From the NCBI GenBank assembly GCA_947478175.1, contig CANJUQ010000009.1, positions 169-64,168 on the forward strand: a DNA stretch of 64,000 bases. Reading direction: 5' to 3'. Positions 6,407-60,226 of this stretch are shown here, in pieces. The position numbers were made by a program, and so were the translations under genes. Below the pieces are notes generated by a model. It did no database searches and was not told the DNA's origin. It was given only the letters and a program-made list of their open reading frames with translations. Position 1 is the stretch's first letter; each line of letters starts with the position of its first letter. The DNA comes from Thiotrichales bacterium (GTDB taxonomy: Bacteria; Pseudomonadota; Gammaproteobacteria; Francisellales; CACEW01).

Positions 6407-6497
6407 ATTCTTTAATATTTAGTTAATGGTTGGAATTTATTATGGCAGGTGATTTTTTATAAAAACAAAACCATAAAGTTAAAAAGGATAATTGATT

Positions 6498-7663: not shown

Positions 7664-8965
7664 TTATGGGGTTAATGATGACAAAGACGTTGATGACGCT
7701 GAAAAGAGTGTCGGCGTGTTTGTTGTGGGTGTCCGTGATGGAAGAGTTTTTTGGGCTTGTGCCAAAAATGCTGTGGGTGAAGATTGAGCAGACAGGGACA
7801 ATGAAGCAAAAGGTGTGATTTCAGTGGTCTGATCACAATCAAAATATCCCCAGTTTTCATCTTTTTCCTCATCTGAAGAAGAGTCTGTTTCTTCTTCTGA
7901 TTCCACAGCTTCACCATCATAGATAAGCTCAAGAAGGCGCTGCGTTGTTTTGGAAGTTCGGAGCGGTTCGCTGGTTTGATCCGTCGGTACTGGCCTTGCA
8001 GCCGCAATTTCTTCTGTTTTTATTTCTGGATCGAGGCTCAATGATTTTGTAAATAGTTCAAGAGCAACCTGCATTTGAGTCGGCCGGAAATGAAAATAAT
8101 CCGCTGGGATATTGCGAGAGGGAAAATGCTTGAGATGTACTTTAAATTCAACATCACTTTTAGAGGAAACCAGGCTTGAAATGCAGACAATATGACCCAG
8201 CGCAATATTAAGTTTCATGAGCTGATTTTTTTCTTTCGAGTCTTCGTTTTCATGCACATAGGCTTCTAATAGCTTTGAAGCCAGTTGAGCAGTCTCAATA
8301 GCATAAGAACGAATGTACTCGCCCCAGATAGGCTCTTTGAAAGCCTCGGGTAATAAACTCAGGGAATAAGCGAAGTTAGCGAGAGAAGCCCCTATTTCAA
8401 AGCTGTTGTCGATGGTGAGAAAACCTGGGGCAGAAATTTTTGTTTCGGCCCAAAATAATTCAGCCGCCATACGAAAACAGTACAAGGCTTGGTAGTGATG
8501 AAAAAGTTGAGTCTTAATGTTGTATTGAATAGCGGGCTCAAGAGACGCTAATTTTTTATTGCTTGATTCTTTTTCAAGACAAGCTGTCATCGTACAAAGA
8601 GATTCTTCTATACGACGAACTTCTTTTTGGAGTGGCTGAGTGTTTTTCTCAAACTGTATGAGGATATTCCGATGCCCAACGCCTCTTAAATAATGAAATT
8701 GAGCATTGGTCTTAAACGGTAGCGCAGGTGTCCAATGGCGGGCGAGTTCAGCCATGCATCCGAATAAAGTGGGGGCGCCTAAATCTGAGAGTTTCAAGCT
8801 GATAGAGGCGGCATTCAAATGGGCTATGAAGTCTGGGTGAGAGAGGATCGGCTCTAATGTTTTTGTGCTCTCTAAAGTAGATCCGGATATTTCTTGTAAA
8901 GCAGGGTCTATTTGTTCCCATTTTTTTTCTGCTGTTGCGATAGATCCACTCATGATAAGACTCAC
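7664..8965 (-). CDS. orphan hypothetical protein, effector-like (acidic Ser/Glu block and Ser/Thr/Pro-rich C-terminus)
   Basis: 433-aa ORF with GGGAGTGAG upstream of the ATG. The central region looks helical. An acidic block (EAVESEEETDSSSDEEKDENW) is followed by an S/T/P-rich tail. No family recognised. Confidence 0.6.
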   Translation of the reverse strand: MSLIMSGSIATAEKKWEQIDPALQEISGSTLESTKTLEPILSHPDFIAHLNAASISLKLSDLGAPTLFGCMAELARHWTPALPFKTNAQFHYLRGVGHRNILIQFEKNTQPLQKEVRRIEESLCTMTACLEKESSNKKLASLEPAIQYNIKTQLFHHYQALYCFRMAAELFWAETKISAPGFLTIDNSFEIGASLANFAYSLSLLPEAFKEPIWGEYIRSYAIETAQLASKLLEAYVHENEDSKEKNQLMKLNIALGHIVCISSLVSSKSDVEFKVHLKHFPSRNIPADYFHFRPTQMQVALELFTKSLSLDPEIKTEEIAAARPVPTDQTSEPLRTSKTTQRLLELIYDGEAVESEEETDSSSDEEKDENWGYFDCDQTTEITPFASLSLSAQSSPTAFLAQAQKTLPSRTPTTNTPTLFSASSTSLSSLTP

Positions 8966-10105: not shown

Positions 10106-10900
10106 ATGTCTGGATTTGAGGAAGAAAAGCCATCAGAAAAAGAGGATCTGAATTTTTTAGTTCAGGCCTGTAAAAACTATAAAACCTCAGGAGTGAAAGC
10201 TCGAAAAGCATTGGGGTTAAGCAATAAAAGAATAAAAGATTTTTTTTTAGGGCCTGTTGAACGACTTGAAATACTTTTCAGTCGTCATGATAAGAGAGAA
10301 AAACAAGATTGTTTTAAATGGGCCGAGGCTTGTTCTAGCTTATGGACAGAGAGTTTTTGGATAAAAGATAAAATTTTTTGGCGTTATATTTTTGATTATT
10401 TGAGAAGTCGTCCTGATATTTTAAATTTGTGTATAGAAGATCTTCGTTACGCTGTTTCTTATTTAGATCTATTGGCTTTGGCTTCTCCCATGACTAGAAA
10501 TTTGTTAGCTGAATTAAAAAAACATAAGTGGCTTGGATGTACTGAATTTAATGTTTTTACGATAGAGCGCGAAATATTATTGAAATCGCCTTTAAGAACG
10601 ATAGAAGCGTTAGAGGGTCAAATAAGCAGTCTTGTTTTTTTGTTGTCCATTGGAGAGGGCTTAGATAAAAAAACTTTATTTTATCCTTTGATTCAAGCTT
10701 ATTTAGCAACGGATCCGGTTCTATATGAAGCGGTTAAGTTAGCAGTTGAGTTACCAGAAGATTTTGAGAAGTCTCGAAGCCCGGCGAGTCGAATCTCTGT
10801 GCTCTTTAGATCAGTCAGCTTTAGTGATGTCAGTCTTAGTGATGTCTCTAGCGAATCAGCAGAAACTGAAACCAGTTCAGAGCCTGAATATTTCGCATAA
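10106..10900 (+). CDS. orphan hypothetical protein with Ser/Glu-rich C-terminal tail
   Basis: 264-aa ORF. The C-terminus is SVSFSDVSLSDVSSESAETETSSEPEYFA and is encoded partly by a 15-nt tandem duplication. The 3' end overlaps the convergent hemH by 24 nt. No family recognised. Confidence 0.5.
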   Translation: MSGFEEEKPSEKEDLNFLVQACKNYKTSGVKARKALGLSNKRIKDFFLGPVERLEILFSRHDKREKQDCFKWAEACSSLWTESFWIKDKIFWRYIFDYLRSRPDILNLCIEDLRYAVSYLDLLALASPMTRNLLAELKKHKWLGCTEFNVFTIEREILLKSPLRTIEALEGQISSLVFLLSIGEGLDKKTLFYPLIQAYLATDPVLYEAVKLAVELPEDFEKSRSPASRISVLFRSVSFSDVSLSDVSSESAETETSSEPEYFA

Positions 10901-15103: not shown

Positions 15104-15844
15104 ATGCTCGAAATTAATAATATCCATGCCAAATCCGGCGATAAAAATATTCTGAAAGGCTTATCTCTCAAAGTTAAACCCGGTGAAATTCACGCCATCA
15201 TGGGTCCTAACGGCTCTGGAAAATCCACGACAGCCAATGTCTTAGTGGGGCGGCCGGGTGTGACAGTGACAGACGGATCGGTCTTATTAAATGGCCAAGA
15301 TTTATTAGCTTTATCTCCTGAAGAACGCGCTTGGGCCGGTTTATTTTTAGCTTATCAATATCCCGTCGAAATCCCTGGAGTTAATAATCTGTATTTTCTT
15401 AAAGCAGCGCTGAATGCCAAACGTAAAGCTCAGGGATTAGACCCGCTAGATGCGATGGATTTTATGGCGTTAGCTAAATCTAAAATGGCTTTGTTATCGA
15501 TGGACAAAAGCTTCTTAGAACGCAGCGTGAATGCAGGATTCTCAGGGGGCGAAAAAAAGCGCAATGAGATTTTCCAAATGCTGGTCTTAGAGCCTAATTG
15601 GATCGTCTTAGATGAGACAGATTCTGGATTAGATATTGACGCGTTACAGATCGTCGCTAAGGGCGTGAATCAACTCAGAAGTTCAGATAGAAGCTTTATT
15701 GTCATTACGCATTACCAAAGATTATTGGATTATATTATTCCCGATTATGTCCATGTTTTGTCTGACGGAAAGATTGTTAAATCAGGGCCCAAAGAGCTCG
15801 CTCTAGAACTCGAAGAAAAAGGCTACGGGTGGCTACGGTCATGA
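15104..15844 (+). CDS. sufC: Fe-S cluster assembly ATPase SufC
   Basis: Walker A GPNGSGKST, ABC signature FSGGEKKR and Walker B ILDETDSGLD. Confidence 0.95.
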   Translation: MLEINNIHAKSGDKNILKGLSLKVKPGEIHAIMGPNGSGKSTTANVLVGRPGVTVTDGSVLLNGQDLLALSPEERAWAGLFLAYQYPVEIPGVNNLYFLKAALNAKRKAQGLDPLDAMDFMALAKSKMALLSMDKSFLERSVNAGFSGGEKKRNEIFQMLVLEPNWIVLDETDSGLDIDALQIVAKGVNQLRSSDRSFIVITHYQRLLDYIIPDYVHVLSDGKIVKSGPKELALELEEKGYGWLRS

Positions 15845-16518
15845 AATTAATTCATCTGGAGTCAAACACTCGGCAAGTTGAGTTAGAGTGCTTGAGCGAG
15901 CCGAAAGATTTGGAGATTAAAATTATCGTAGAAGCCAATGCGATATTTGATTTTTATTTGTTTGCGAATTTAGCGCAGGGCCAATCTTCCGTGAATATAG
16001 ACGTTGAATTAGTCGGACCTGAGGCGGCTTTTAATTTAATCGGCGCTTATGATTTAAGAGAAAAGGCCCAGTCCACTTGGAAAATCAATATTCGACATTT
16101 GGCTTCTCATACCCATTCCAATGTTTTCGCTCGAGGCATTGGTCGGGATAAAGCGATTGGATATTTTAAAGCGTCTGTGAATGCAGCCAAAAATTTACAA
16201 GTTATTAAAGCCCATCAGAAAAATTACAATTTATTACTTTCTTCGCAAGCGAGCTTATTCAGTCAGCCTTTTTTAGAGATTAATACGGATCAAATAGAAT
16301 GTTCTCATGGGGCAACGGTCGGCCAGTTAGACCCGAATGCTTTGTTTTATTTACAAAGTCGTGGCATTAGCTTGTTAGAAGCTAAGCAAATGTTGACAGA
16401 GGGTTTTTTAGAAGACGTGATTTTAAAATTGCCTAACGAAAGTTGGCAGAAATCGGTCAGAGTTTTGATGAAAGGACAAGATCAAGCAGGGGGGCAGTCA
16501 TCATGTATGGTGTCATAG
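15829..16518 (+). CDS. sufD: SufD-like protein, short form
   Basis: 229 aa matching only the conserved C-terminal SufB/SufD domain (ECSHGATVGQLDPNALFYLQSRGI). The start overlaps sufC. Confidence 0.7.
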   Translation: MATVMKLIHLESNTRQVELECLSEPKDLEIKIIVEANAIFDFYLFANLAQGQSSVNIDVELVGPEAAFNLIGAYDLREKAQSTWKINIRHLASHTHSNVFARGIGRDKAIGYFKASVNAAKNLQVIKAHQKNYNLLLSSQASLFSQPFLEINTDQIECSHGATVGQLDPNALFYLQSRGISLLEAKQMLTEGFLEDVILKLPNESWQKSVRVLMKGQDQAGGQSSCMVS

Positions 16519-39039: not shown

Positions 39040-40533
39040 TCATGGATGCGGTGGAAAAAAATACGATTTCGGCGGCGGACTGACAGGACCTAAAACATAT
39101 CCATTTCTGGGAATGCCTCTTGGGGGTGCACCAAAACAAAGCGCCGGTTTTGATGAAGCAAACGCATGGGGCATGGCACTAGCGGTTGCTACTTGAGATA
39201 TCTCAGAAGTGAGGTATCGCTGATAACGTTTTAGGCAGGCGTTGGCACAATTCATGTCCTGCTGGTTGAAATAGATGATGTCGTCTTGCAGGGAGCGACC
39301 GAGATGGGGTGTGGTTAGTAATTTTGAAAGTTCATCTCTTTTAAGAATCTCATTCATTAATAAAAAATCTACTAGGAAAAAATATTGATTAAAGGTGGCG
39401 GTATTTTTTAACCAACAAGCGATTTGTCGGGGTGCCATTCCCAATCCGCAGTCAGAGAGTAAGCTTTCTTTGAGATGTTCAGGGGTTATCAATTTGAAAT
39501 CAAAACAAAAGGTAAGCAAATCCAAGAAATCATTGAAGCTTTGTATGCCTGCCCGAATAGAAGCACTGATTGGATTGATGGGTTGATCACCAGTTGCTAT
39601 TTGATTGAACCATAAAAAAAAGTTGTCTTGATGACCTTGATAAAACGGAAGGTTACGTGTGACGCATCTCTTAAAAAAATTCAGGTAAAGCGTTCTGCTT
39701 TCTTGAGAACATTTATCTGAAAAGGCTTTATGTAAGGAGGAAGACTTATGTGAATCAAGACAAGTCAAAGCTTTTAAAATATCAAAAGATTCCAGTCCAA
39801 AGTGTCTCTCAATAAAACTAAAATAGTTAGCTAGAGCGATCGGGAGAAGTGTTTGTAACGCTCTATCTATAAAGATGTGGCCATCATGTTTGAGTAAATC
39901 GCCTATTTCTGGTGTGGAAAAAGAGAAACCACGCACCATGGCCTGCTCAAAGAAGTGAATAAAAGAAAGGACGTCACCACTGCGCTCATAAAGTATTGCG
40001 TATGAAAAAACAGTATATCCAAGAGTATTTTTCGAAAATAAGAAATGTTTGATGGCTTCTGGACTTGCTATTAGAGCTTTTTCAAAGGCGCAATCAATAA
40101 GACTAGAGTAACCAGAGATGTCCAAAGAGCCCTCAATGACACGTAAAAAATGTTTTTCCATGAGAATAATTAAGGGCTCTATTGTTGCTGGTTTTGGGTA
40201 CCAAGAAGGCGCATTTGCTGTCATGGTCGCTATTTCGGGAGAAGGGGGTTTTCTTCTTTGCGTAGTTAAATCTATTGGGGGAGCTTCTTCTTCTTCAAAT
40301 AAGCCTCTTAAGGTATCAAAAGGCTCGCTGGCGTAATCGCTCGCTATTGAAGAAGGGGTGCCTGAAGAAGAAATAGCTGAATAAGAGGGGGTGTATGTTG
40401 TTGGGAGCCCTGCCAAAAAATTTAAAAAATCCACAGGCTCTGATGGGAGCGGAGAGGCTATAGGTGGTGATGTTATTCTGCTTCCGATAGGGCTTACAGT
40501 TGGTTTTTTTAAATCAGTAGGACTTCCAGACAT
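39040..40533 (-). CDS. orphan hypothetical protein, effector-like (Pro/Ser-rich termini, helical core)
   Basis: 497-aa ORF. The N-terminal ~100 aa are S/T/P-rich with an EEEE block. The C-terminus is Pro-rich (GPVSPPPKSYFFPPHP). No family recognised. Confidence 0.6.
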   Translation of the reverse strand: MSGSPTDLKKPTVSPIGSRITSPPIASPLPSEPVDFLNFLAGLPTTYTPSYSAISSSGTPSSIASDYASEPFDTLRGLFEEEEAPPIDLTTQRRKPPSPEIATMTANAPSWYPKPATIEPLIILMEKHFLRVIEGSLDISGYSSLIDCAFEKALIASPEAIKHFLFSKNTLGYTVFSYAILYERSGDVLSFIHFFEQAMVRGFSFSTPEIGDLLKHDGHIFIDRALQTLLPIALANYFSFIERHFGLESFDILKALTCLDSHKSSSLHKAFSDKCSQESRTLYLNFFKRCVTRNLPFYQGHQDNFFLWFNQIATGDQPINPISASIRAGIQSFNDFLDLLTFCFDFKLITPEHLKESLLSDCGLGMAPRQIACWLKNTATFNQYFFLVDFLLMNEILKRDELSKLLTTPHLGRSLQDDIIYFNQQDMNCANACLKRYQRYLTSEISQVATASAMPHAFASSKPALCFGAPPRGIPRNGYVLGPVSPPPKSYFFPPHP

Positions 40534-40800: not shown

Positions 40801-40890
40801 GGAGAGATGTCCGAGCGGTTTAAGGAGCACGCCTGGAAAGCGTGTATACGGTCAAACGTATCGAGGGTTCGAATCCCTCTCTCTCCGCCA
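40801..40890 (+). tRNA. tRNA-Ser (anticodon GGA)
   Basis: Acceptor stem GGAGAGA/TCTCTCC, anticodon stem-loop CACGC-CTGGAAA-GCGTG, long variable arm, T arm GAGGG-TTCGAAT-CCCTC and an encoded CCA. Confidence 0.92.
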
Positions 40891-40909: not shown

Positions 40910-41398
40910 TCATTTTATTTTTTTGATCAGTCTTGGGTCTATCTGGAGATTTTCTGGGGTGCTTATTTTGATTTTAGAAAAATCAGGATGGGCTGGGTTC
41001 AACAAGAAATTACTTTCAGCGGGCACAACAACGCTAGGTATTTCCAAAACACACGTTTTCCCTTCTTTAATCCAATAGCTCCCTATCTTTTGTAAAGTTT
41101 CCCGAGCGTTCATGTCACGCCATGTGCTAGGTAATTCCTTGATGGGGAGAGTGAGTATTGAAAAACTTTCGGGTAGTTTCGCAGAAATTAAAACGTAATC
41201 GGCATGGAGTGGTTGGTCTTGAACCAGCATTTCAAGTAAGGCGAGAGAACGATTTTCAGAAGTGTAGACAACCGATTCACCTTTTTGATTCCAACGCCCG
41301 CCAAATAAACGAGCCCCTTCTCCCGAAAAAGCAGTTTCTGAGAAACATCGTTTGATAATTCGCCAAATAGTTTTTGAAGTCTTTATATGAGTTTGCAT
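40910..41398 (-). CDS. RES-domain toxin (NAD+-targeting toxin family)
   Basis: 162 aa with GGRWN (Arg), LALLE (Glu) and [15 protein letters not shown] (Ser) motifs. It lies downstream of an Xre-type antitoxin gene. Confidence 0.85.
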
Positions 41399-41429: not shown

Positions 41430-41909
41430 CTAACTAAATACGCCGTGTTCAATACGGCCGAGGATGTCCATGACAGACTGAGAGCCTAGGTCGGTATCTA
41501 GTAACGATAATGGGGTGGCGCCTTCAAGGCTGCCATTAGGAATTTTAAGCCAGTCTAAAGCCAGATCAATACTTTCAAAAACTTCAACAGAACGTTCAGT
41601 CACGCGGGCTAGGCGATGCAATTTTTCAGATTCTTCAGGGGTGAGCAGACCTTCTTTTTTGCGTCGAACGAGCGTTCTTATAGGGATGTTGAGTGTTTTA
41701 CAAAGTTCTAGCTGTGATATTTCTAAAACATTCATGACGGCATCAATGGCTGAAGCGGGTATGCCTTGTCGGACTAGGGTAATCCATTCTGAAGAGGAGC
41801 TGGGGTTTGAGTTTAGTATTTGTTTTCCACCCAAGATTCCTGACGCTGAAAGGCCTCTTTTTGTTTTAGATTTTGATTTTCTAGAAGAATGGGTTGGGAA
41901 TGCGGACAT
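41430..41909 (-). CDS. Xre-like antitoxin with DUF2384-type toxin-binding domain
   Basis: 159 aa with an HTH region (ISQLELCKTLNIPIRTLVRRKKEG). The C-terminal segment ALDWLKIPNGSLEGATPLSLL is typical of the MbcA/ParS family. Confidence 0.8.
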   Translation of the reverse strand: MSAFPTHSSRKSKSKTKRGLSASGILGGKQILNSNPSSSSEWITLVRQGIPASAIDAVMNVLEISQLELCKTLNIPIRTLVRRKKEGLLTPEESEKLHRLARVTERSVEVFESIDLALDWLKIPNGSLEGATPLSLLDTDLGSQSVMDILGRIEHGVFS

Positions 41910-42079: not shown

Positions 42080-42188
42080 CGCGATTGTCGGGTCCCCTCG
42101 CAATTGAGCGTTACAAACCCCGCCAGGTCCGGAAGGAAGCAACGGTAGTAATAGCTCGTGTGCCGAGGTGAGGCTCGATGGTCGCATT
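42080..42188 (+). ncRNA. ffs: signal recognition particle RNA (4.5S RNA)
   Basis: The conserved domain IV core CCAGGUCCGGAAGGAAGCA...GUGUGCCG closely matches E. coli 4.5S RNA. The 5' GCGAUUGUCGGGUCCCCUCG pairs with the 3' CGAGGUGAGGCUCGAUGGUCGC. It lies upstream of dnaX. The ends are approximate. Confidence 0.8.
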
Positions 42189-45130: not shown

Positions 45131-45751
45131 ATGAGCGACCGTATGTTTTACCATCGTCGTTCAATTCGACTGAAAGGCTATGATTATTCTCAGGCTGGTT
45201 CTTATTTTATTACGATATGTACTTATTACCGGGAATGTTTATTTGGAACTATTTCGAACAATGAAATGCAGTTAAATAATTGTGGAAAAATTGTGGAAAC
45301 TAGTTGGTTAAATATTCCCAATTATTTTTCAAATGTTGTTTTAGATAAATTTATTGTCATGCCCAATCATCTTCATGGGATTCTTTCAATAAAACCCACT
45401 GTAGGGGCGCAATTCATTGCGCCCTCTGATCTGATAAACGCATCCCCGGATATGGGGATAAATAAGAGTGCAATAGATAATAAACACGAGGGCGCAATAG
45501 ATAATAAAGACGAGGGCGCAATGAATTGCGCCCCTACGGTAGGTCATATAATCCGTGCCTTTAAAGCACGTACAACGAGCACTGTGAATCGTCAAAAAGG
45601 GAGCTATGGAATGCCGATTTGGCAACGTAATTACTATGAGAATATTGTTCGAGATGAAGCTGCTCTGGATAAAATTCGACAATATATTGAGTGTAACCCA
45701 GGAAAATGGGCCTTTGATAAAGATAATCCCAATAGTTCTATCTATTCATGA
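45131..45751 (+). CDS. REP-associated tyrosine transposase (RAYT, IS200/IS605 Y1 family) with in-frame REP-doublet insert
   Basis: The N-terminus RRSIRLKGYDYSQAGSYFITICT, HUH motif MPNHLHGIL and Tyr motif WQRNYYENIVRDE...YIECNP are typical of RAYT/COG1943. Residues 91-136 are encoded by a REP doublet. Confidence 0.85.
   Translation: MSDRMFYHRRSIRLKGYDYSQAGSYFITICTYYRECLFGTISNNEMQLNNCGKIVETSWLNIPNYFSNVVLDKFIVMPNHLHGILSIKPTVGAQFIAPSDLINASPDMGINKSAIDNKHEGAIDNKDEGAMNCAPTVGHIIRAFKARTTSTVNRQKGSYGMPIWQRNYYENIVRDEAALDKIRQYIECNPGKWAFDKDNPNSSIYS
45401..45537. repeat. REP inverted doublet inside the RAYT coding sequence
   Basis: The 5' REP is identical to 44965-44990. The perfect inverse GAGGGCGCAATGAATTGCGCCCCTAC lies at 45512-45537. 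The spacer core GATATGGGGATAAATAAGAGTGCAATAGATAATAAA is shared with the upstream doublet. Confidence 0.85.
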
Positions 45752-45801: not shown

Positions 45802-47526
<1,725 letters not shown>

Positions 47527-47563
47527 TCACTTCGTGTGAAAAAATCTAAAAAGGAATTGTTTG

Positions 47564-49816
47564 ATGTCCGATGAAATTACTCCCTCTGAGTCTTATGCTC
47601 TGGCGATAGAAGGCGCTGAGCAGCAGCCCATGGCTGAATTTACGCGTAAAGCGTATTTAGATTATTCCATGTATGTGATTCTAGACCGGGCGTTGCCGCA
47701 TATTGCCGATGGTTTAAAGCCTGTCCAAAGACGGATTATTTATGCCATGAGTGAGCTAGGTCTTTCAGCTATTTCTAAACATAAAAAATCGGCTCGAACG
47801 GTTGGGGATGTTTTAGGTAAATACCATCCGCATGGAGACAGCGCTTGTTATGAAGCTATGGTTTTGATGGCTCAGCCGTTTTCCTATCGATATCCCGTGA
47901 TCGATGGCCAAGGTAACTGGGGATCCATGGATGACCCGAAATCTTTTGCCGCCATGCGATATACAGAAGCTAGGTTGTCTGCCTATGCCAAATTATTACT
48001 AGAAGAATTAGGCCAGGGGACGGTGGATTGGTCTCCTAATTTTGATGGGACTCTCGAAGAACCCGTTATGTTGCCGGCTCAGGTGCCTAATATTTTATTA
48101 AATGGTGGAACAGGGATTGCGGTAGGGATGGCGACGGATATTCCGCCACATCATATGGGCGAAGTCTTAGATGCCTGTATTTATTTATTGAAGCATCCCA
48201 ATGCCTCGTTAGAAAAAATCATGCAGATGATTCCGGGCCCTGATTTTCCTACCAAAGCTGAAATTATTTCTTCCCCTGAAGAGATTAAATCTATTTATGA
48301 GACGGGCTTGGGGTCTTTACGCCAGCGGGCAAAATATAGAATTGAAGATGGCGAGATTTATATCGAAGCGTTGCCGCATCAAGTTTCTGGGGCAAAAATT
48401 TTAGAACAGATTGCCACCCAGATGAACGCTAAAAAACTTCCGATGGTGGCTGATTTAAGAGACGAGTCTGATCATGAAAACCCGTTATCTCTGGTCATTG
48501 TTCCCCGATCTAACCGAGTAGATTGTGACCAGCTGATGCAGCATTTATTCGCAACGACGGATCTTGAGAGAACCTATCGTGTTAATTTAAATATGATCGG
48601 ATTATCCGGGCGACCTGAAGTTAAAAATTTAAAAGAAATTCTGACTGAATGGCTAAGTTACAGAATAATAACGGTTCAAAAGAGGCTCAATTATCGATTA
48701 GATAAAGTCGAAGCTCGGCTGCATATTTTGCAGGGTTTATTAATTGCTTTTTTAAATTTGGACGAAATTATTCGAATAGTCCGTGAAGCTGAAGATCCTA
48801 AAGCCCAGCTAATGAAAAAATTCAAACTGTCTGAACTCCAGGCGGATGCGATTTTAGATACCAAGCTAAGACACTTGGCCAGACTCGAAGAAGTTAAAAT
48901 TCGAGGCGAAGAAGCTGAGTTAGCCAAAGAAAGAAAATATTTAAAAAATTTATTAAAAAACGAAGATGAACTGAAAGATTTTGTCATTGAAGAAATGAAA
49001 AAAATTCGCAAAGAGCATTCAGGCGTGCGTCAAAGTCCGATTGTTCAGCGTGAGCAAGCCAAAGCTTTAAGTGAAGAAGAAGTATTGCCAACAGAATCTG
49101 TCACGATTGTTTTATCTAATTTGGGTTGGGTTCGTTGCGCGAAGGGTTTAAATATTGATGGGATGTCTCTGAGTTATAAAACAGGGGATAGTTATCTCTG
49201 TGCTGTTTCAGGAAAATCTAATCAACAGGCTGTTTTTATTGATAACACAGGCAGAAGTTATTCGACGCTGGTTCATAAGTTGCCCTCTGCCAGAGGCCAG
49301 GGAGAGCCGTTAACTAGTCGCTTTTCTCCTGAATTAAACACACGATTTACTCAAATGATGATTGGCGAAGACGCTCAGAAATTTATTGTTGGGACAGATC
49401 ATGGTTATGGCTTTGTGACTTCTTTAAGTGAAGCCTTAAGTAAAAACAAAGCCGGCAAAGGTTTTATCTCTGTGCCGGATTCTAAAGCTGCAATTTTGCC
49501 GCCACTCAAAACAGATTATTTGGCTTCTGAGTGGATCGTCATGGCGACGGAAGAGGGAAGGTTATTGTGTTACCCCGTGACGCAAATAGCTGAGTTATCT
49601 AAAGGCAAAGGAAATAAATTAATTGGAGATAAAATAACGGCCTGGGCTGTTATGACAGAAGGCAAAAATGAAGAGCTTTATATTCACTCAGGGAAGCAAT
49701 ATCTCAGATTAAAATTTGCAGAATTAATTGACTATAAAGGCGAACGAGCTCGAAAAGGGGCTTTGTTACCTAAGGGTTATCGGCAGGTTTCTGGGATGGA
49801 AGTGAAGGCGGTTTGA
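47564..49816 (+). CDS. parC: DNA topoisomerase IV subunit A
   Basis: Near-collinear similarity to E. coli ParC ([42 protein letters not shown] catalytic Tyr). The ~750 aa size and lack of a GyrA box fit ParC. Confidence 0.9.
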
Positions 49817-49825
49817 ATAATATAA

Positions 49826-50926
49826 ATGGCTTTAAATCCCCCCCCTGAATTCTACATGCATCGCGCTTTAGAACTTGCATTGCAAGGACAATATACGGCT
49901 AGGCCTAACCCAATGGTCGGCGCTGTGTTAGTAAATAAAGACGGAGAAATAATTGGAGAGGGTGCCCATCTGAGAACAGGTGAGCCTCATGCTGAGATTC
50001 ATGCTTTAAAACAAGCGGGAGAGAAAGCTCGAGGGTCAACTTGCTATGTGACGTTAGAGCCTTGTTGTCATTGGGGTCGAACGGGGCCTTGTGTCGATGC
50101 TTTAATTCAAGCGGGCGTGTCTCAAGTTGTTTTTGCGATGCAAGATCCTAATCCCCAAGTCAATGGCCAGAGTATTTCAAAACTTAAAGACGCTGGGATT
50201 CAAGTGTCTTATGGATTGTTAGAACAAGAGGCTAGAAATTTAAATCCTGGTTTTATTAGCCGAATGATCAGAAAGCGGCCTTATGTCAGAGCTAAGATTG
50301 CGGCCAGTCTAGATGGCAGGACTGCTCTATCTAATGGCAAAAGCCAATGGATTACGGGGAAAGAAGCCCGGCAAGACGTCCAATATTTAAGAGCGAGATC
50401 TTCAGGAATTATTTCGGGTTCGGGGACTGTGAAAGTAGATAATCCTAGTTTGACTGTCAGACAAAATGATTGGCCTGAAAAATATTTACTAGACATAAAA
50501 CAGCCCGTCAGAATTATTTGTGATTCTGAATTTAAAATTAATAAAAATTTTAATTTAAATTTAAAACTATATGAAACCAAAAGCCCTGTTTGGATTGCTC
50601 ATGCAAATCCAAATAAAAAAGCTGAACCTGAAGGGATCTATTTGCCTAATAAAAATAACCAAGTGGATCTAGAGGGTTTAATTAACTGGTGTTATGAGCA
50701 AGAGCTTCCAGAGATTTTAATTGAAGCGGGAAATATTCTGACGGGGGCTTTTTTAGAGAAAAATTTAATAGATGAAATCTGGATTTATCTAGCACCCTGT
50801 TTTTTTGGCCAAGACGCCAGAGCTATGGTTAATTTGTCTTTATTAAATTCGTTGGAAAATATCAAAAGATGGCAAATCCAATCTGTTAAAATGATCGGCC
50901 AGGATATAAGAATTATTTTAATTTAG
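49826..50926 (+). CDS. ribD: bifunctional riboflavin biosynthesis deaminase/reductase
   Basis: Deaminase Zn motifs HAEIHAL and PCCHWGRTGPC, plus a C-terminal reductase domain. Confidence 0.9.
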   Translation: MALNPPPEFYMHRALELALQGQYTARPNPMVGAVLVNKDGEIIGEGAHLRTGEPHAEIHALKQAGEKARGSTCYVTLEPCCHWGRTGPCVDALIQAGVSQVVFAMQDPNPQVNGQSISKLKDAGIQVSYGLLEQEARNLNPGFISRMIRKRPYVRAKIAASLDGRTALSNGKSQWITGKEARQDVQYLRARSSGIISGSGTVKVDNPSLTVRQNDWPEKYLLDIKQPVRIICDSEFKINKNFNLNLKLYETKSPVWIAHANPNKKAEPEGIYLPNKNNQVDLEGLINWCYEQELPEILIEAGNILTGAFLEKNLIDEIWIYLAPCFFGQDARAMVNLSLLNSLENIKRWQIQSVKMIGQDIRIILI

Positions 50927-50929
50927 TGT

Positions 50930-51373
50930 CTATTCAGAGAGTTCTTCATAGTAAGTTGGCGGAAGAGATGGCCCGGACATCTGAATGGACATGCTATTTG
51001 GGTCTCTATTTTTTTGGGTTGCTTTTTCTTGTTCTGAAAATCTGTAAAACAGCACGGTAGATCCAAGCAAAGAGCCGACAATTAAAGAAGTTCCTGCAAT
51101 TAATAAATGATTACAATAAGCGTAGGGTGTCAGTAAATCTTTATGAAGGTTGCAAAAAAAAGCACAGGCTGCATTTTTTAGTTCTGGGAGGCAACGTTCT
51201 GTGTCATCTGAAGTAAAACAGAGGGGCTCAGTATTTTTTAGGGTGTCGATGGCAGACATGCTCGTAATGTCAATACCATAGCGATAGGCGATAAGCCCGA
51301 TTCCCATGGACAGTACAATGCTGGCCACACAGAAAGTAATATTTTTTTTATGATGAACTTCCCAGTCAGCCAT
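50930..51373 (-). CDS. hypothetical two-helix membrane protein with a 4-Cys loop and PPTYYEEL tail (paralog 2)
   Basis: 147 aa. The start overlaps the upstream paralog stop by 8 nt (ATGGCTGA). It has two hydrophobic helices flanking CF-x6-CLP-x7-C-x3-C-x-LH. Confidence 0.55.
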   Translation of the reverse strand: MADWEVHHKKNITFCVASIVLSMGIGLIAYRYGIDITSMSAIDTLKNTEPLCFTSDDTERCLPELKNAACAFFCNLHKDLLTPYAYCNHLLIAGTSLIVGSLLGSTVLFYRFSEQEKATQKNRDPNSMSIQMSGPSLPPTYYEELSE

Positions 51374-51728
51374 GAGTGATCTCCAAGGAATTAACGTTTG
51401 AACACAAAGCAGATCGATAGCCTAGCCATAGGGAAATAAAAGTACTGAACGCAAAGCCAATTCCAGTAAAATTTTGAAGCAAGGAATTTGTTTGTTGGCT
51501 TTGTGAATAGCTATGGTGCAGTAAACAAGTAGTGTTACAGGTTAAGTTGCTATCTAACCATCGGCTAGGCAAGCAAGTTTGATTTGCAAAACAGTGAGGC
51601 TGTTGTTCTGTAATGATTCGCAGAGAAGCGCTATGTCGGTCGCTGGCGCCTAGTGCATAAGCGCTTAATAAAAAAGTGACAGCGGCGGTAATAGCGCAAA
51701 AAGAAAAGAGAAAATTTATTTTGATCAT
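51366..51728 (-). CDS. hypothetical two-helix membrane protein with a 4-Cys loop (paralog 1)
   Basis: 120 aa with an N-terminal signal/anchor helix. The loop is CF-x4-CLP-x9-C-x3-C-x-LH, followed by a C-terminal helix. Confidence 0.55.
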   Translation of the reverse strand: MIKINFLFSFCAITAAVTFLLSAYALGASDRHSASLRIITEQQPHCFANQTCLPSRWLDSNLTCNTTCLLHHSYSQSQQTNSLLQNFTGIGFAFSTFISLWLGYRSALCSNVNSLEITHG

Positions 51729-51909
51729 GCTGTTTAGAAGCCAGTGATTTTATTTTTTTATTATGGGCCGACATTAGTACTAAATATTTTCGGTAGAAGA
51801 AAGTATAAAAAAATAAAAAGGCCTGTAAAAACCTTAAAACTTGAGGTTGGCTTTTTGAAAACAGGGGTTCATAATCCGCGCCCTTATTATTTTTCCTGGA
51901 GAAAATCAC

Positions 51910-52749
51910 TTGAAATTATGCGGCTTTGAAGCGGGATTGGACCAGCCTTTTTTTCTGATTGCGGGCCCTTGTGTGATTGAATCTGAGTCGTTGGCTTTAT
52001 CGACTGCTGAAACACTCAAAACGCTGACAGATAAGTTAAAAATTAATTTTATTTATAAGTCTTCTTTTGATAAGGCCAATAGATCTTCTGGGGATAGCTA
52101 TCGGGGATTAGGTTTATCTAAGGGTTTAGAGATTTTATCTAAAGTCAAAAAAGAAATCGGCGTGCCCATTCTGACAGACGTCCATGAAGATACGCCCTTA
52201 GACGAAGTGGCTTCTGTAGTCGATGTGTTACAAACACCTGCTTTTTTATGTCGCCAGACGAATTTTATTCAAAATGTCGCTAAGCAGGGCTTACCTGTGA
52301 ATATTAAAAAAGGCCAATTTCTAGCACCTTGGGATATGGTCCATGTAGCAAAAAAAGCCCAGTCGGTTGGCAATAATCAGATTATGGTCTGCGAGCGTGG
52401 AGCCAGTTTTGGTTATAACAATTTGGTTTCTGATATGAGATCTTTACAAGTCATGAGAGAAACAGGTTGTCCTGTCGTTTATGACGCAACGCATTCAGTT
52501 CAGCTACCGGGCGGTCAAGGTAAAGTGTCGGGTGGACAGAGAGAATTTGTGCCTACTTTAGCTCGTGCAGCGATGGCGGCTGGGATTTCAGGAATGTTTA
52601 TGGAAACCCACCCTAATCCCAAAGAAGCTTTGAGTGATGGTCCGAATGCATGGCCGTTAGGTCTTATGGAAGAATTATTAAAAGTTTTAAAATCTATTGA
52701 TCAAGCTGTTAAATCGAGCGGTTGGATCGAAAATAAAGTGAAAGAATAA
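51910..52749 (+). CDS. kdsA: 3-deoxy-8-phosphooctulonate synthase
   Basis: TTG start. [24 protein letters not shown] and [11 protein letters not shown] motifs. Confidence 0.9.
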
Positions 52750-56096: not shown

Positions 56097-56570
56097 ATGA
56101 TTTTTAAAATAACCTTGGCGAGTGTTTCTGTTGGCATGACATCTGCTGTCATGCTGCCGGAATTACCTGTTTTGAGTCCTGAAGAAAAAGAAAAATTATT
56201 AATAGATTTAAATCAGTTTTGTGAGCCGTATGGGATTGTTTTTTTTCGTTCTTGTTTTGATTTTGTAGGGGCGGACCTGCGTGTCCGCCCGATTCAGCAG
56301 GGCGGACACACAGGTCCGCCCCTACGAGTGAGTTGTACAAATTTTAGGAAAGCCTGCGGTAGACCCTTAGGCAGTTTTTTACCGACTGGTTCTGATGGCG
56401 TGAAATTAAATGCCTGGATGACTGAGATCCAAATGTTCCTGCACCAGCATTCTATTAATCAAATTCGACGAGAACGGGGTGATCAGACCCTTGATATTTT
56501 ATGGTTCGAGAAAGTTTCTTTTTTTAAGAATTTATTGATCTGGACAAAGAAATTATGCAACCCCAAATAA
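56097..56570 (+). pseudogene. doubtful ORF or gene remnant interrupted by a REP doublet
   Basis: A 157-aa ORF whose residues ~56-76 (VGADLRVRPIQQGGHTGPPLR) are encoded by the REP doublet. Its 3' end overlaps recJ. The C-terminal part (LNAWMTEIQMFLHQHSINQIRRERGDQTLDILWF) resembles, from memory, an internal segment of a much longer conserved protein family. Confidence 0.3.
56265..56325. repeat. REP inverted doublet (REPIN-like), GGAC-stem variant
   Basis: GTAGGGGCGGACCTGCGTGTCCGCCC (56265-56290) and GGGCGGACACACAGGTCCGCCCCTAC (56300-56325) are mutual reverse complements with one mismatch. Confidence 0.8.
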
Positions 56571-58318
56571 TCCAAAGAGAGATTGATTTTGATTATCAAA
56601 AATTACTAGAACAATCGGGTATTTCATCTCGCATTGCGAAAATCATCGCGGCTAGACCTAAACATGCTCATGCCATCCCTCAGGCTAGTTTTAGTCCCAA
56701 GCTCCAGTATTTAACTTCGCCTTTGGGTCTCAAAGATATTCAAAAAGCAGTCGATAGATTAATTCAAGCGATAGACAACCAAGAAATCATTGGTATTGAG
56801 ACAGACCATGATTGCGATGGTCAGACAGCTCATGCTGTTATTTTTTCAGCCCTAAAAGATATTTTTGGCGTGCCTGAAAAAAATATCCGGTCTTATATTG
56901 GCCATCGAATGAAAGAAGGGTATGGCTTATCAGACGCTGTGTGTGATCGAATTTTACAAGATCAGCCCAGGCCCAGTGTTTTAATTACTGCAGATAATGG
57001 TAGTGCAGATGAACTCAGAATAGCTCGGCTAAAAGCTGAAAATATGGATGTCATCGTGACAGATCATCATGAAGTTCCCTTAGCTGGGGCGCCTCAAAGT
57101 GCTTATGCCTGTTTGAATCCCACGCGTGAAGATTGCGATTTTGAAGATCCCTATATCGCTGGTTGTATGGTCGCTTGGTTATTCATGGCTGCAGTAAATC
57201 AAAAATTAAAATTAGAAAAAAAAATAAAACCCAATGTTCCTAGTTTGGGCAGTTTGTTAGATTTCGTTGCGGTTGGAACCATTGCTGATTGTGTGAGTTT
57301 AAGCCGCAGTATTAATAATCGAGCCGTAGTTCAGGCGGGGTTAGAAAAAATTAATCAGCTTTCCAGACCTTGTTGGCAAGCGATCAAGCCTTTAATTAAA
57401 AATCCAAAAATCACCAGCAGTGACTGTGGTTTTTTAATTGGGCCCCTGCTGAACAGTGATGGACGATTGTCAGATGCTTTCGGTTCTGTAAGTTTTTTAT
57501 TGTCTAACTCTTTAGAAGAGGCAGCACCGTGGGCAAAAGTTTTACATTCTCAAAATGAAACCCGTAAAAAAATTCAGAAAAAAATGACAGAAGATGCCAT
57601 GCAATTGGCTAAACAGCAGGTGGATTCTGGAAAAGTCTCAATTGTTTTATTTTTACCAGAAGGCCATGCGGGCATTCATGGGATCAGCGCCAGTCGAATC
57701 AAAGATTTGTTTGGCCGGCCTGTGATTATCTTTTCGCCTAAAGAAGGTGAGTTGGAGATTATTACTGGATCGGCCAGAAGCATCGATGAAATCCATCTCA
57801 AAGAAATCCTGGATCAAGTCGCCCAAAAGATTCCAGAGATTGTCTTAAAACATGGCGGTCATAAAGGCGCAGCTGGGGTGGGAATTAAAAAATCAGGATT
57901 AGAAATCTTTGCGAATTATTTTGAATCTGAAGTTTTGAAAAAAATTAATATTAAAAATATCGGACCCAAAATTTGGGTTGATGGCTGTTTAGAGCCCGAA
58001 GAAATTAATTTAAATCTTTTGGATCAGCTTCAAGAACTAGAACCTTTTGGACGCGAATTCGAAGCGCCGTTGTTTCAGATTCAGGCCAAGGTTAATAGCC
58101 CTAGAGCCGTAGGTGATGGCTCGCATCTCCAATGTGAAATGGTTTTAGAGAATGGCGATGTTCATAAATCTATTTTCTTTGGTGGTGCGGTGAATCAAGA
58201 TTTATCTAGGCTGGCGGGTCAGCCTGTTCAGGCCATTATTGAGCTGACAGAAAATTATTTTCGAGGCCGAAATTTAAATTTATTAATCAGACACTGGGAA
58301 TTATTGGGAGAAAAATAA
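56555..58318 (+). CDS. recJ: single-stranded-DNA-specific exonuclease RecJ
   Basis: DHH-family motifs (ETDHDCDGQTA, ITADNGS, IVTDHHE) and the DHHA1 motif GGHKGAAG. Confidence 0.92.
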   Translation: MQPQIIQREIDFDYQKLLEQSGISSRIAKIIAARPKHAHAIPQASFSPKLQYLTSPLGLKDIQKAVDRLIQAIDNQEIIGIETDHDCDGQTAHAVIFSALKDIFGVPEKNIRSYIGHRMKEGYGLSDAVCDRILQDQPRPSVLITADNGSADELRIARLKAENMDVIVTDHHEVPLAGAPQSAYACLNPTREDCDFEDPYIAGCMVAWLFMAAVNQKLKLEKKIKPNVPSLGSLLDFVAVGTIADCVSLSRSINNRAVVQAGLEKINQLSRPCWQAIKPLIKNPKITSSDCGFLIGPLLNSDGRLSDAFGSVSFLLSNSLEEAAPWAKVLHSQNETRKKIQKKMTEDAMQLAKQQVDSGKVSIVLFLPEGHAGIHGISASRIKDLFGRPVIIFSPKEGELEIITGSARSIDEIHLKEILDQVAQKIPEIVLKHGGHKGAAGVGIKKSGLEIFANYFESEVLKKINIKNIGPKIWVDGCLEPEEINLNLLDQLQELEPFGREFEAPLFQIQAKVNSPRAVGDGSHLQCEMVLENGDVHKSIFFGGAVNQDLSRLAGQPVQAIIELTENYFRGRNLNLLIRHWELLGEK

Positions 58319-59022
58319 TGAATTATTTCTCAGAGATGCATCCAAATAAATCAAAAGCTCTGATGTTGGCAAAGCGTCAATTATCAGAACTTGTTTTTGA
58401 TGCCGTGAATCTAGAAGGCATTAATTTTACTTTGCCAGAAGTTCAAACTTTGTTAGATGGCATTACGATTGGTGGGAGAAAGCTCACAGATCAGCAAATT
58501 GCCATTAATCAGGCCAATGCTTGGAAATTTATTTTTAACTCAGTGAATCAAAATAGTTTTAATCTTTCTGCTGAATTTTCATGTGAAGTCCATAAAATTT
58601 CCGGGTTTCAAGAAGCCTTGGAATGGGGAAAATTTAGATCAGGTTCGGTGACCATTGCAGGGACAGATTATCAGCCGCCTAAAGCACAAGATTTAAAAAA
58701 TAACTGGGACGAAATGATTTCAGTATTATTTTCAACAGAGTCTAAAGAACCAGATTTAATTTATGACCAGGCGATTGGATTATTTTTGCAGATGGCCAGG
58801 AATCAATTTTTCTATGATGTAAATAAGCGCATGGGAAGATTTTTCATGAATGGATTTTTATTATCTAAGGGCTATCCCGTGATTAATTTACCCGCTAAAA
58901 AACAGCTGGAATTTAATAATCTGATGCTGGATTTTTATGGGTCAAACCAAATGGGTCCCATGATTAGTTTTATGAAAAATTGTTTAGATCCCAGAGTGAT
59001 TGAGATCATGAGTGAAACTTAG
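58318..59022 (+). CDS. Fic-fold (Fido) protein with degenerate active-site motif
   Basis: 234 aa. The ATG overlaps the recJ stop (TAATG). The layout is Fic-like (NLEGINFTLPEV, GKFRSGSVTIAG..YQPP). However, the HPFxDGNGRxxR position reads QFFYDVNKRMGR (58804-58839), so the catalytic His and both Gly are lost. Confidence 0.6.
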   Translation: MNYFSEMHPNKSKALMLAKRQLSELVFDAVNLEGINFTLPEVQTLLDGITIGGRKLTDQQIAINQANAWKFIFNSVNQNSFNLSAEFSCEVHKISGFQEALEWGKFRSGSVTIAGTDYQPPKAQDLKNNWDEMISVLFSTESKEPDLIYDQAIGLFLQMARNQFFYDVNKRMGRFFMNGFLLSKGYPVINLPAKKQLEFNNLMLDFYGSNQMGPMISFMKNCLDPRVIEIMSET

Positions 59023-59050: not shown

Positions 59051-60226
59051 TCAATAAATAACGCCTAGTTGATAACTGGTACTCCGGCCTTTACCTAAAT
59101 TTTGAATTAAGATTTTTAATTCTAATAATTCACGAATATCTCGAGCGGCTGTGTCTTGGGAGCACTTAGCTAATTTGGCGTATTTGCTAGAATTTAAATA
59201 GCCCTCAAAGTCCCCCAAAAGTTTATTCAAGATCAAAACCTGACGTGGGTTTAGCATTAAACCAGCCTGTTGAGTTTCTTGGTGGACCTGTTCCCAAAAT
59301 TTGGCTTTGTATAAAACTTTGGAAAGCAAAATATCAGCATTGGTAATACTTCTGTCGAGACAATCTAAGAACCATTCTAACCAAGGCGTGATGTCTAAAC
59401 GGCCTTTTTGTTGGCTTTCGAGCTGCTGGTAATAGTTTTTTCTTTCACTCTCAATTTGAGACGACAGGCTATAAAATCGTTTGTTGGTTTGATCGGCTTG
59501 TGACAGCGCCATATCAGAAATAGCTCGAGCGATACGGCCATTACCATCTTCAAAAGGATGAAGGGTGATAAACCATAAATGAGCAATACCTGCTTTTAAA
59601 ACAGGGTCAATAGAGTCCATGGATTCAGAATCTGAAAGCTGAGAAGAAGTCTCGTTATTAAACCAGGCTAAAAACTGATCCATCTCAGACTCTAATCTTT
59701 CTGCACTAGGGGTTTCAAAATGGATTTTTTCTTTGCCAATGGGGCCTGAGATAACTTGCATGGGGCCTGATTCTTTTGATCGCCAAGCGCCTGTTTTAAT
59801 TTTATACAGACCGCTTTGGCCCGTTGGGAATAGGGCCGCTTGCCAACGAAATAAGCGTTCAGAAGTCAGCGGTTCATCATAGTGGATCGTTGCATCCAGG
59901 ATCATATCAACGATAGCGTCAATATTGCGGCTTGATGGTATGAGACCCGCCATTTCTAAACCCATACGTCGTGCAATCGAAGAGCGGACTTCTTCAGGAT
60001 TTAAAAATTCCCCTTCGATGGCAGAAGATTTGACGATGTCTTGGGTGAGGTTAATTAAGCTGGATTCTTCTTGAAGCGAAAAACCAAGGCTGGCCATGCG
60101 GCCTAAAAGCAGGCCTTGTTGGTTTCTAACAGCGGCAAGTTTTGTCGTGAGTGTTTTGCTGTTCCAAGAAAATACAGGCCAATGAGGCTGCTCATGAATA
60201 TAAGTCACTAGATATAATCTCCGCAT
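59051..60226 (-). CDS. Fic family protein (AMPylase-type) with N-terminal extension and C-terminal wHTH
   Basis: Canonical HPFEDGNGRIAR motif, an N-terminal inhibitory-helix-type motif SSAIEG, and a C-terminal winged-helix-like region (SKYAKLAKCSQDTAARDIRELLELKIL). Confidence 0.85.
   Translation of the reverse strand: MRRLYLVTYIHEQPHWPVFSWNSKTLTTKLAAVRNQQGLLLGRMASLGFSLQEESSLINLTQDIVKSSAIEGEFLNPEEVRSSIARRMGLEMAGLIPSSRNIDAIVDMILDATIHYDEPLTSERLFRWQAALFPTGQSGLYKIKTGAWRSKESGPMQVISGPIGKEKIHFETPSAERLESEMDQFLAWFNNETSSQLSDSESMDSIDPVLKAGIAHLWFITLHPFEDGNGRIARAISDMALSQADQTNKRFYSLSSQIESERKNYYQQLESQQKGRLDITPWLEWFLDCLDRSITNADILLSKVLYKAKFWEQVHQETQQAGLMLNPRQVLILNKLLGDFEGYLNSSKYAKLAKCSQDTAARDIRELLELKILIQNLGKGRSTSYQLGVIY

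Follow-up and report, generated by a model that had tools for sequence, protein, structure and literature searches.

What do two small, adjacent open reading frames (ORFs) encode that lie between ribD and kdsA in an uncultured freshwater gammaproteobacterium and resemble no recognised family? The DNA analysed, here called the window, is a 64,000-nucleotide stretch of contig CANJUQ010000009.1 from a Thiotrichales bacterium (Francisellales, CACEW01), and the two ORFs on its minus strand are referred to as genes A and B. An initial annotation, made from the bare sequence, proposed that they specify a small disulfide- or metal-binding membrane heterodimer, and also raised the idea of inclusion-membrane proteins with host-type motifs. 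The first of these proposals remains the best reading, given the coupling of the genes, the paralogy of their products and a conserved four-cysteine loop. We propose, with a probability of about 0.5, that A and B form an inner-membrane heterodimer of paralogous helical hairpins whose periplasmic tip is stabilised, or stapled, by cysteines.

The two minus-strand ORFs of 120 and 147 codons, and their 8-nt overlap, were confirmed in the window at the positions given in Table 1. They are flanked by ribD (49826..50926, +) and kdsA (51910..52749, +), with parC and pyrG upstream and eno, ftsB and surE downstream. Searched exhaustively with a HMMER profile, a set of 1.84 billion representative proteins yielded only two further family members, the B-type protein P0003 (162 residues, E=8e-19) and the A-type protein P0004 (155 residues, E=2e-10). 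The genes for both are located on a single 8.1-kb freshwater contig, L058 (run SRR14234030), where the arrangement is that of the window (kdsA <- / A-type -> B-type -> / <- ribD <- parC <- pyrG). A word-index search of 5.8 billion clusters returned only self matches when each protein was used as the query, and only self matches, P0003 and P0004 when the four-sequence profile was used. Scanning GTDB species genomes with RibD as the anchor revealed no close relative; the top RibD identity was 48%, and the matches came from assorted Gammaproteobacteria. No further relative or syntenic locus emerged when JGI metagenomes were scanned with the motif of the family and by RibD alignment, or when IMG/VR, plasmids and phages were scanned. 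A hidden Markov model and regular-expression scan of the window and 1.2 Mb of fetched loci gave no additional copy, and the Cys motif occurred nowhere else in them. The window organism itself was absent from the GTDB species representatives and JGI metagenomes scanned, while DNA 100% identical to its contig is present in the Římov reservoir and other freshwater metagenomes, the samples being freshwater reservoir plankton. The contig is found in ERZ27277814, SRR6787039 and ERR3761214-19. RibD matches and the ambiguous best PDB matches of enolase and SurE place the organism no more closely than among the Gammaproteobacteria.

The initial annotation had described A and B as paralogs, and this held up. 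BLASTP aligned A with B at E=2e-4, and in all four Smith-Waterman comparisons of an A-type with a B-type protein the score stood well above chance (z 7.2-8.8), with none of 1000 shuffles reaching it. Identity was 41% between A and P0004 and 47% between B and P0003, compared with about 24-28% between A and B, which places the duplication before the split of the two organisms. A and B are thus an ancient paralogous pair, syntenic and coupled in both genomes.

Translational coupling, also claimed earlier, is borne out by the start/stop overlap and by a Shine-Dalgarno sequence for B inside the 3' end of A; by inspection, gene A has no clear Shine-Dalgarno sequence of its own. The overlap recurs in L058, where it measures 14 nt with the same frame relation (cATG reads as His in the A frame) and where AGGAG lies 9 nt 5' of the B-type ATG. 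The C-termini of A (..LEITHG, window 51366-51390) and P0004 (..ESLSHAPA, L058 1975-2007) resemble each other, and this likeness is a by-product of the coupling, since the Shine-Dalgarno sequence of B (GGAG, encoding Glu) and its start (cATG, encoding His) dictate the residues of A at these positions.

Both ORFs carry a coding signature. Identity between the window and L058 at codon positions 1/2/3 was 0.49/0.60/0.38 for A and 0.50/0.65/0.41 for B, an order of 2>1>3 in each case. Nonsynonymous divergence of the pair was 0.55-0.62, versus 0.07-0.12 in the flanking genes, whose products are 79-89% identical between the two genomes at a synonymous divergence of 1.0-1.8; for the pair no synonymous value can be given because these sites are saturated. 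Since the codon-position pattern persists despite this saturation, A and B are real genes, fast-evolving and weakly constrained by purifying selection. Small envelope proteins can evidently diverge fast, with 41-47% identity in the pair against 79-89% in its neighbours, and such divergence would keep the pair hidden from family databases. That the frames are open by chance, with a chance likeness in their cysteines, is a reading that the short, family-less products and the lack of a clear Shine-Dalgarno sequence for A might invite. It is effectively refuted by the persistence of the ORFs, their order and overlap, the B Shine-Dalgarno sequence and 14 invariant residues in the face of saturated synonymous sites, and by the codon-position pattern.

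The 14 columns invariant in all four proteins are, in B numbering, L27, Y30, C52, F53, L62, P63, N67, C70, C74, L76, H77, L90, Y110 and R111. L27 and Y30 mark the end of helix 1, and Y110-R111 the end of helix 2. The best-conserved parts of the proteins are the transmembrane helices, especially those of B (GIGLIAY; LLI[AS]G.SLI..SL..ST.LFYRF), and their richness in small residues suggests specific helix packing.

No family was recognised when the locus was first described, and our searches agree. Among Pfam, NCBIfam, PHROGs and PADLOC, none of the four proteins gave a match above family threshold; the top NCBIfam match, WD_0736_fam, scored 17 bits where 80 is the cutoff, over helix 1 only, and one member had a weak Pfam match to Phage_holin_3_3 (E=0.041). 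A sequence-profile search of the PDB found no relative. Foldseek comparison of AlphaFold2 (AF2) models of A and B with the PDB and BFVD found nothing at E<0.1 (best E=0.19), and the non-significant matches were generic helical hairpins: UvsY, FliJ, FadA, EsxA and designed transmembrane hairpins. The profile and structure searches and the motif survey that the initial annotation had suggested thus matched no known housekeeping family, and the motif recurred in P0003 and P0004. The A/B family is a true orphan, and two genomes of uncultured freshwater bacteria are the only ones known to carry it.

We assessed membrane insertion with the Hessa biological hydrophobicity scale, summing values over each segment. 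In B, two hydrophobic 19-mers (residues 12-30 and 90-108; sums -0.09 and +0.77) are separated by a polar loop of 59 residues. In A, helix 1 is strong and helix 2 marginal, with about 63 residues between them, and in the orthologues about 60-70 polar residues separate the hydrophobic segments. The layout first described for both proteins, two hydrophobic helices around a loop of about 60 residues, therefore stands for B and for helix 1 of A, but helix 2 of A is only marginally hydrophobic, which fits a helix that needs a partner. The AF2 model of A (mean predicted local distance difference test score, pLDDT, 75) contains helices at 2-42 and 62-118 and a small beta-hairpin at 46-51; that of B (mean pLDDT 65) contains helices at 2-48, 68-81 and 83-121, with residues 122-147 disordered at pLDDT <50. 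In both models the helices extend well past the hydrophobic segments and the cysteines cluster at the tip of the hairpin. B carries K9 and K10 on its N-terminal side and R111, K117, K121 and R123 after helix 2, and its loop is net acidic. Positive charges are, as a rule, retained on the inside, so this distribution places the termini in the cytoplasm and the Cys loop in the periplasm. A hairpin fold with the N-terminus in and the loop out is predicted for the pair.

Two membrane helices with both termini inside and a charged C-terminal tail would also suit a membrane-permeabilising pair of the holin or small-toxin kind, such as a holin and antiholin or the remnant of a lysis cassette, and the weak Phage_holin_3_3 match points the same way. 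However, there are no phage genes and no endolysin nearby, the slot between housekeeping genes is syntenic in two divergent genomes, and searches of PHROGs, phages, plasmids and IMG/VR turned up no relatives. The long, Cys-rich periplasmic loop is moreover atypical of class II holins, and the GC content of the pair is native (40.6% versus 40.2% for the window). We regard this explanation as extremely doubtful.

The Cys strings quoted in the initial annotation were exact, and the shared pattern CF...C...Cx3CxLH recurs in both homologs, making it a conserved family signature: the four cysteines, the Cx3CxLH motif and the helix-boundary residues are kept in all four proteins, whereas the remaining cysteines are not conserved. 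Spacing varies, with 5, 8, 11 or 18 residues between Cys1 and Cys2 and 6-11 between Cys2 and Cys3; in P0004, Cys2 has shifted by six residues (CLPS to ALPSHQC) yet is retained. C70, C74 and H77 of B are spaced i, i+4, i+7, which puts them on one face of a helix, and N67, just before helix 2 in the model, is likely its N-cap. We weighed glycosylation at the N-x-T sequons beside Cys3 and Cys4 and rejected it in favour of the Asn cap, because B has NAAC at this position and helix 2 begins there in the AF2 model. Neither c-type heme attachment (CxxCH) nor a CuA site (Cx3Cx3H) fits the Cx3CxxH motif.

The same architecture could instead carry a copper or zinc site at its tip, formed by Cys3, Cys4, the invariant His and a loop Cys, which would make the pair a membrane-tethered metal chaperone or sensor. 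The C-x3-C-x2-H residues are invariant in all four proteins and are placed by AF2 along one face of the first turns of helix 2, and a disulfide staple has no obvious need for the His. Cx3C with a His is the copper ligand set of Sco proteins. However, the library, PDB and Foldseek searches gave no likeness in sequence or fold to any metal-binding family, periplasmic Cys pairs are normally oxidised, and no metal-homeostasis gene is adjacent, the cyo operon and a cation diffusion facilitator (CDF) transporter being 13-20 kb away. The variable Cys1-Cys2 and Cys2-Cys3 spacings also mean that Cys1 and Cys2 are not a knuckle-type ligand pair. We consider a metal site possible, if unlikely, and prefer two disulfides because of the periplasmic location of the cysteines and these variable spacings. 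A long shot is an undescribed envelope device, in which a heterodimeric four-helix stalk, anchored in the membrane and bearing a periplasmic Cys4-His redox or metal centre, senses or shuttles metal or oxidant and signals through the disordered tail of B; less likely still, under this heading, would be hairpin effectors in a protist membrane.

In the arrangement that we favour, the stapled heterodimer, A and B would be co-expressed as small inner-membrane proteins, with the conserved start/stop overlap and the internal Shine-Dalgarno sequence supplying both chains together. Each chain would be a helical hairpin with a cytoplasmic N-terminus, whose helix 1 spans the membrane and then projects about 15-20 residues beyond it on the periplasmic side. 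Cys1, in the CF motif, and Cys2 would lie in a short turn or beta-bridge, and helix 2 would begin at the invariant Asn cap, present Cys3-x3-Cys4-x-L-His on one face of its first turns and return through the membrane to the invariant Tyr-Arg on the cytoplasmic side. Two nested disulfides (C1-C4 and C2-C3) are the likeliest state of the four cysteines in the oxidising periplasm, and they would staple the tip. The chains would most likely pack as a heterodimeric four-helix stalk, in which the weakly hydrophobic helix 2 of A is stabilised by its partner and to which B contributes a disordered, variable cytoplasmic tail. Such a pair would serve as a fast-evolving, lineage-restricted envelope accessory or scaffold and not as an enzyme; the disulfides and this role are what we infer for it.

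Several points weigh against this arrangement. The heterodimer is suggested by coupling and paralogy only. AF2 confidence is only moderate (pLDDT 65-75) and derives from a four-sequence alignment, and with just two genomes carrying the family, conservation statistics are thin. The invariant His, which shares a helical face with Cx3C, fits a metal site as well as it does a disulfide staple, and no Dsb genes were seen within the 64-kb window. Helix 2 of the A-type protein is marginally hydrophobic in both genomes (+3.5 to +4.5), and the sequences AYA in A and SAA in P0004 follow the first hydrophobic helix, so that A could be a periplasmic protein with a cleaved signal peptide. Helix 1 of A would in that case be the Sec signal peptide, and mature A, Cys-rich and periplasmic, would dock on membrane-embedded B through an amphipathic C-terminal helix. 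We judge this improbable, as the hydrophobic stretch of 19-22 residues is above typical signal-peptide length and AF2 gives A one continuous helix at 2-42. The L and Y that end helix 1 are also invariant across A and B types; because this end is conserved in both kinds of paralog, we keep helix 1 in the mature protein and rate the cleaved option lower.

The idea of host targeting arose from the tail of B. The hydrophilic tail had been put at 45 residues and is closer to 37 after helix 2; the PPxY and YEEL motifs reported in it are both present, but they are adjacent and do not overlap. With P at 0.046 and Y at 0.028 of residues, 1.1 PPxY motifs are expected in the 18.5k residues of large ORFs in the window, and one other instance occurs, in CyoB (cytochrome oxidase subunit I). 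The probability is 0.008 (0.8%) per 147-residue protein, which amounts to dozens per genome by chance, and YxxPhi motifs are expected 1.4 times per 147 residues. The tail of P0003, which aligns only loosely, ends ...SLPLLSLEQDSAFQNNP and has neither PPxY nor YxxPhi. With the motifs at chance level and absent from P0003, a loop that departs from that of chlamydial inclusion-membrane (Inc) proteins and a Cys loop predicted to be periplasmic, the inclusion-membrane idea and a host-mimicry reading of PPxY/YxxL are both unsupported. A single such motif in a bacterial tail calls for a check of conservation or enrichment before it is taken as host mimicry.

Spelled out in full, this idea would have A and B translocated as hairpin effectors into the membrane of a protist vacuole, with the tail of B recruiting WW-domain or adaptor protein (AP) complex proteins through PPxY/YxxL. 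An orphan, fast-evolving family with a disordered acidic C-terminal tail would suit such a role, as would the five ORFs without a family and the two Fic-domain proteins of the window. The best PDB match of SurE, 3TY2, which we take to be a Coxiella protein, could be counted on the same side. Besides the chance-level motifs, however, the polar loop of 59-70 residues falls outside the Inc definition, the four conserved cysteines on the side opposite the tail suit an oxidising bacterial periplasm, and it is the transmembrane helices and not the tail that are best conserved. The pair lies within a housekeeping cluster of matching GC content, and the PDB entries nearest to enolase are of the E. coli type, not those of Legionella or Coxiella. 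No secretion system and no eukaryote-like domain was found among the genes of the 64-kb window. These include aminoacyl-tRNA synthetases, pilA/B/C of a type IV pilus, a XerC/D-type recombinase, hemH, hemE, the Suf system, resistance-nodulation-division efflux, trpF, pdxA, cyo oxidase, ribD, dnaX, recR, recJ and an M23/LysM peptidase, and many are biosynthetic (heme, riboflavin, Trp, pyridoxal phosphate, Suf, cyo oxidase). We hold translocated effectors to be very improbable; the window gives no sign of intracellular life, and nothing about the A/B pair itself points to host targeting.

Upstream of the pair, the divergent intergenic region between kdsA and A (51729-51909) contains two blocks conserved with L058 (Table 1). 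The only sigma-70-like site upstream of A was considered as its promoter and set aside, as it is not conserved in L058.

Table 1. Features of the A/B locus, in window coordinates.
Feature	Position	Strand	Basis or remark
Gene A	51366..51728	-	120-aa ORF; A-type paralog: helix 1, Cys loop, marginally hydrophobic helix 2, 16-aa tail
Gene B	50930..51373	-	147-aa ORF; B-type paralog: helix 1, Cys loop, helix 2, disordered 37-aa tail (predicted cytoplasmic)
A/B start/stop overlap, 8 nt, ATGGCTGA	51366..51373	-	Read from sequence; translational coupling
Shine-Dalgarno of B, GGAG	51381..51384	-	7 nt 5' of B ATG, within 3' end of A
A transmembrane helix 1, about residues 4-25	51654..51719	-	Kyte-Doolittle 19-mer mean 1.96; Hessa sum -0.13
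A helix 2, about residues 88-104, ending in invariant YR	51417..51467	-	Hessa sum +4.5 (marginal); orthologue +3.5
Cys motif of A, residues 46-71, CFANQTCLPSRWLDSNLTCNTTCLLH	51516..51593	-	Sequence and family alignment
B transmembrane helix 1, residues 12-30, with GIGLIAY	51284..51340	-	Hydrophobicity; GIGLIAY identical in P0003
B transmembrane helix 2, residues 90-110, LLIAGTSLIVGSLLGSTVLFY	51044..51106	-	Hydrophobicity; about 15/22 residues identical in P0003
Cys motif of B, residues 52-77, CFTSDDTERCLPELKNAACAFFCNLH	51143..51220	-	Sequence and family alignment
PPTY (138-141) and YEEL (142-145) in B tail	50939..50962	-	Chance-level, not conserved
AT-rich conserved block TACCGAaAATAT..AGTACTAAT..CATAAAAAAA, partly palindromic core	51748..51798	-	L058 alignment; candidate promoter/operator of the pair
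Second conserved block, kdsA promoter-like TTGGCT-17-CATAAT	51847-51890	+	L058 alignment
Sigma-70-like TTTACA-16-TATACT upstream of A	51802..51829	-	Not conserved in L058; regional site count not above shuffle expectation

At its other end the pair meets ribD. The two genes converge with 3 nt between the stop codons of ribD and B (window 50926-50932), where no terminator-like site was found, and in L058 the 3' ends of ribD and the B-type gene overlap by 24 nt (2459-2482). With convergent ends this tight, each transcript must run antisense into the other gene. In the wider cluster (window 45865-52749), pyrG and kdsA are separated by parC, ribD and the orphan pair. Since pyrG, kdsA, eno and ftsB are contiguous in many Gammaproteobacteria, this segment looks like an insertion or rearrangement common to both carriers. 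Just upstream of pyrG, a 206-residue ORF (45131-45751) has a partial match to an IS200-like Y1 transposase (profile 64-119) and may be associated with repetitive extragenic palindromes (REP) or degenerate.

Elsewhere in the window, a RES-domain toxin and an Xre-type antitoxin (40910-41398 and 41430-41909, both -) lie between a tRNA gene (40801-40887) and the signal recognition particle RNA (42087-42182). Two convergent Fic-domain ORFs directly follow recJ, at 58318-59022 (+) and 59051-60226 (-, DUF4172 and Fic). Five ORFs of 157-497 residues have no Pfam family at E<=0.01 and are maybe lineage-specific (6492-7274; 7664-8965, -; 10106-10900; 39040-40533, -; 56097-56570). A SufD-like ORF of 229 residues (15829-16518) covers only the C-terminal SUFBD core and overlaps the end of sufC and the next ORF; it may reflect a start-codon issue, a frameshift or a short SufD.

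The immediate impact of the pair is small, as it is found in two uncultured freshwater genomes and offers no functional handle. We compared it with known systems of similar build. Relative to class II holins, which have a short loop and sit in lysis cassettes, A and B have a long loop, ribD and kdsA as neighbours and no relatives in the PHROG, phage and IMG/VR searches. LapA/YciS, encoded upstream of and overlapping lapB, is likewise a small two-helix inner-membrane hairpin coupled to a partner gene, and A and B lie beside a lipopolysaccharide gene (kdsA, divergent). However, A and B match neither LapA/DUF1049 nor any other Pfam or NCBIfam family, the loop of LapA is short and lacks a Cys motif, and the link to kdsA is one of divergent adjacency only.

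Chlamydial Inc proteins are likewise small membrane hairpins that evolve fast, conserve little of their sequence and keep their two termini on one side of the membrane. They are characterised by a bilobed hydrophobic domain of two 20-30-residue transmembrane segments with a small loop, or by a hydrophobic stretch of 40 residues or more (PMC3290821). In contrast, A, B and their orthologues have 59-70 polar residues with four cysteines between the segments, and they are found among gammaproteobacterial housekeeping genes in the corresponding gene order, with no type III secretion gene in the 64 kb. The single PPxY and YxxL of the B tail recall Coxiella CvpA-type effectors and PPxY ligands of WW domains, but here the motifs occur once each, at chance frequency, and are absent from P0003, so that neither conservation nor enrichment is seen; the window also shows no sign of a Dot/Icm system.

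The WXG100 proteins EsxA and EsxB resemble the pair in being adjacent, co-expressed paralogs of about 100 residues with a helix-turn-helix fold, of the kind expected here to give a heterodimeric four-helix bundle, and EsxA was among the non-significant Foldseek matches. However, A and B have no WxG in the loop, no Pfam match and housekeeping neighbours in place of a type VII secretion context, whereas WXG100 proteins are soluble and without Cys staples. The small Tim/CHCH proteins, with twin CX3C or CX9C motifs, are antiparallel hairpins in an oxidising compartment that are closed by two nested disulfides and whose paralogous partners hetero-oligomerise. A and B are likewise paralogous partners and would share with them the predicted antiparallel hairpin in an oxidising compartment, cysteines at the tip in the AF2 models and probably two nested disulfides. 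They differ in having a single CX3C, with Cys1 and Cys2 in a variable loop 5-18 residues apart, and in being anchored in the membrane by both helices, and no relationship in sequence or by Foldseek was detected. Functionally, and with no sign of an unprecedented mechanism, the pair is a variant of familiar themes, namely tandem paralogous hairpin heterodimers and Cys-stapled hairpins of oxidising compartments. If our proposal is true, A and B would be a compact, self-contained case of hairpin duplication that builds a periplasmic stalk, capped by disulfides or metal and anchored in the membrane, and so a bacterial equivalent of the stapled hairpins found in the mitochondrial intermembrane space.

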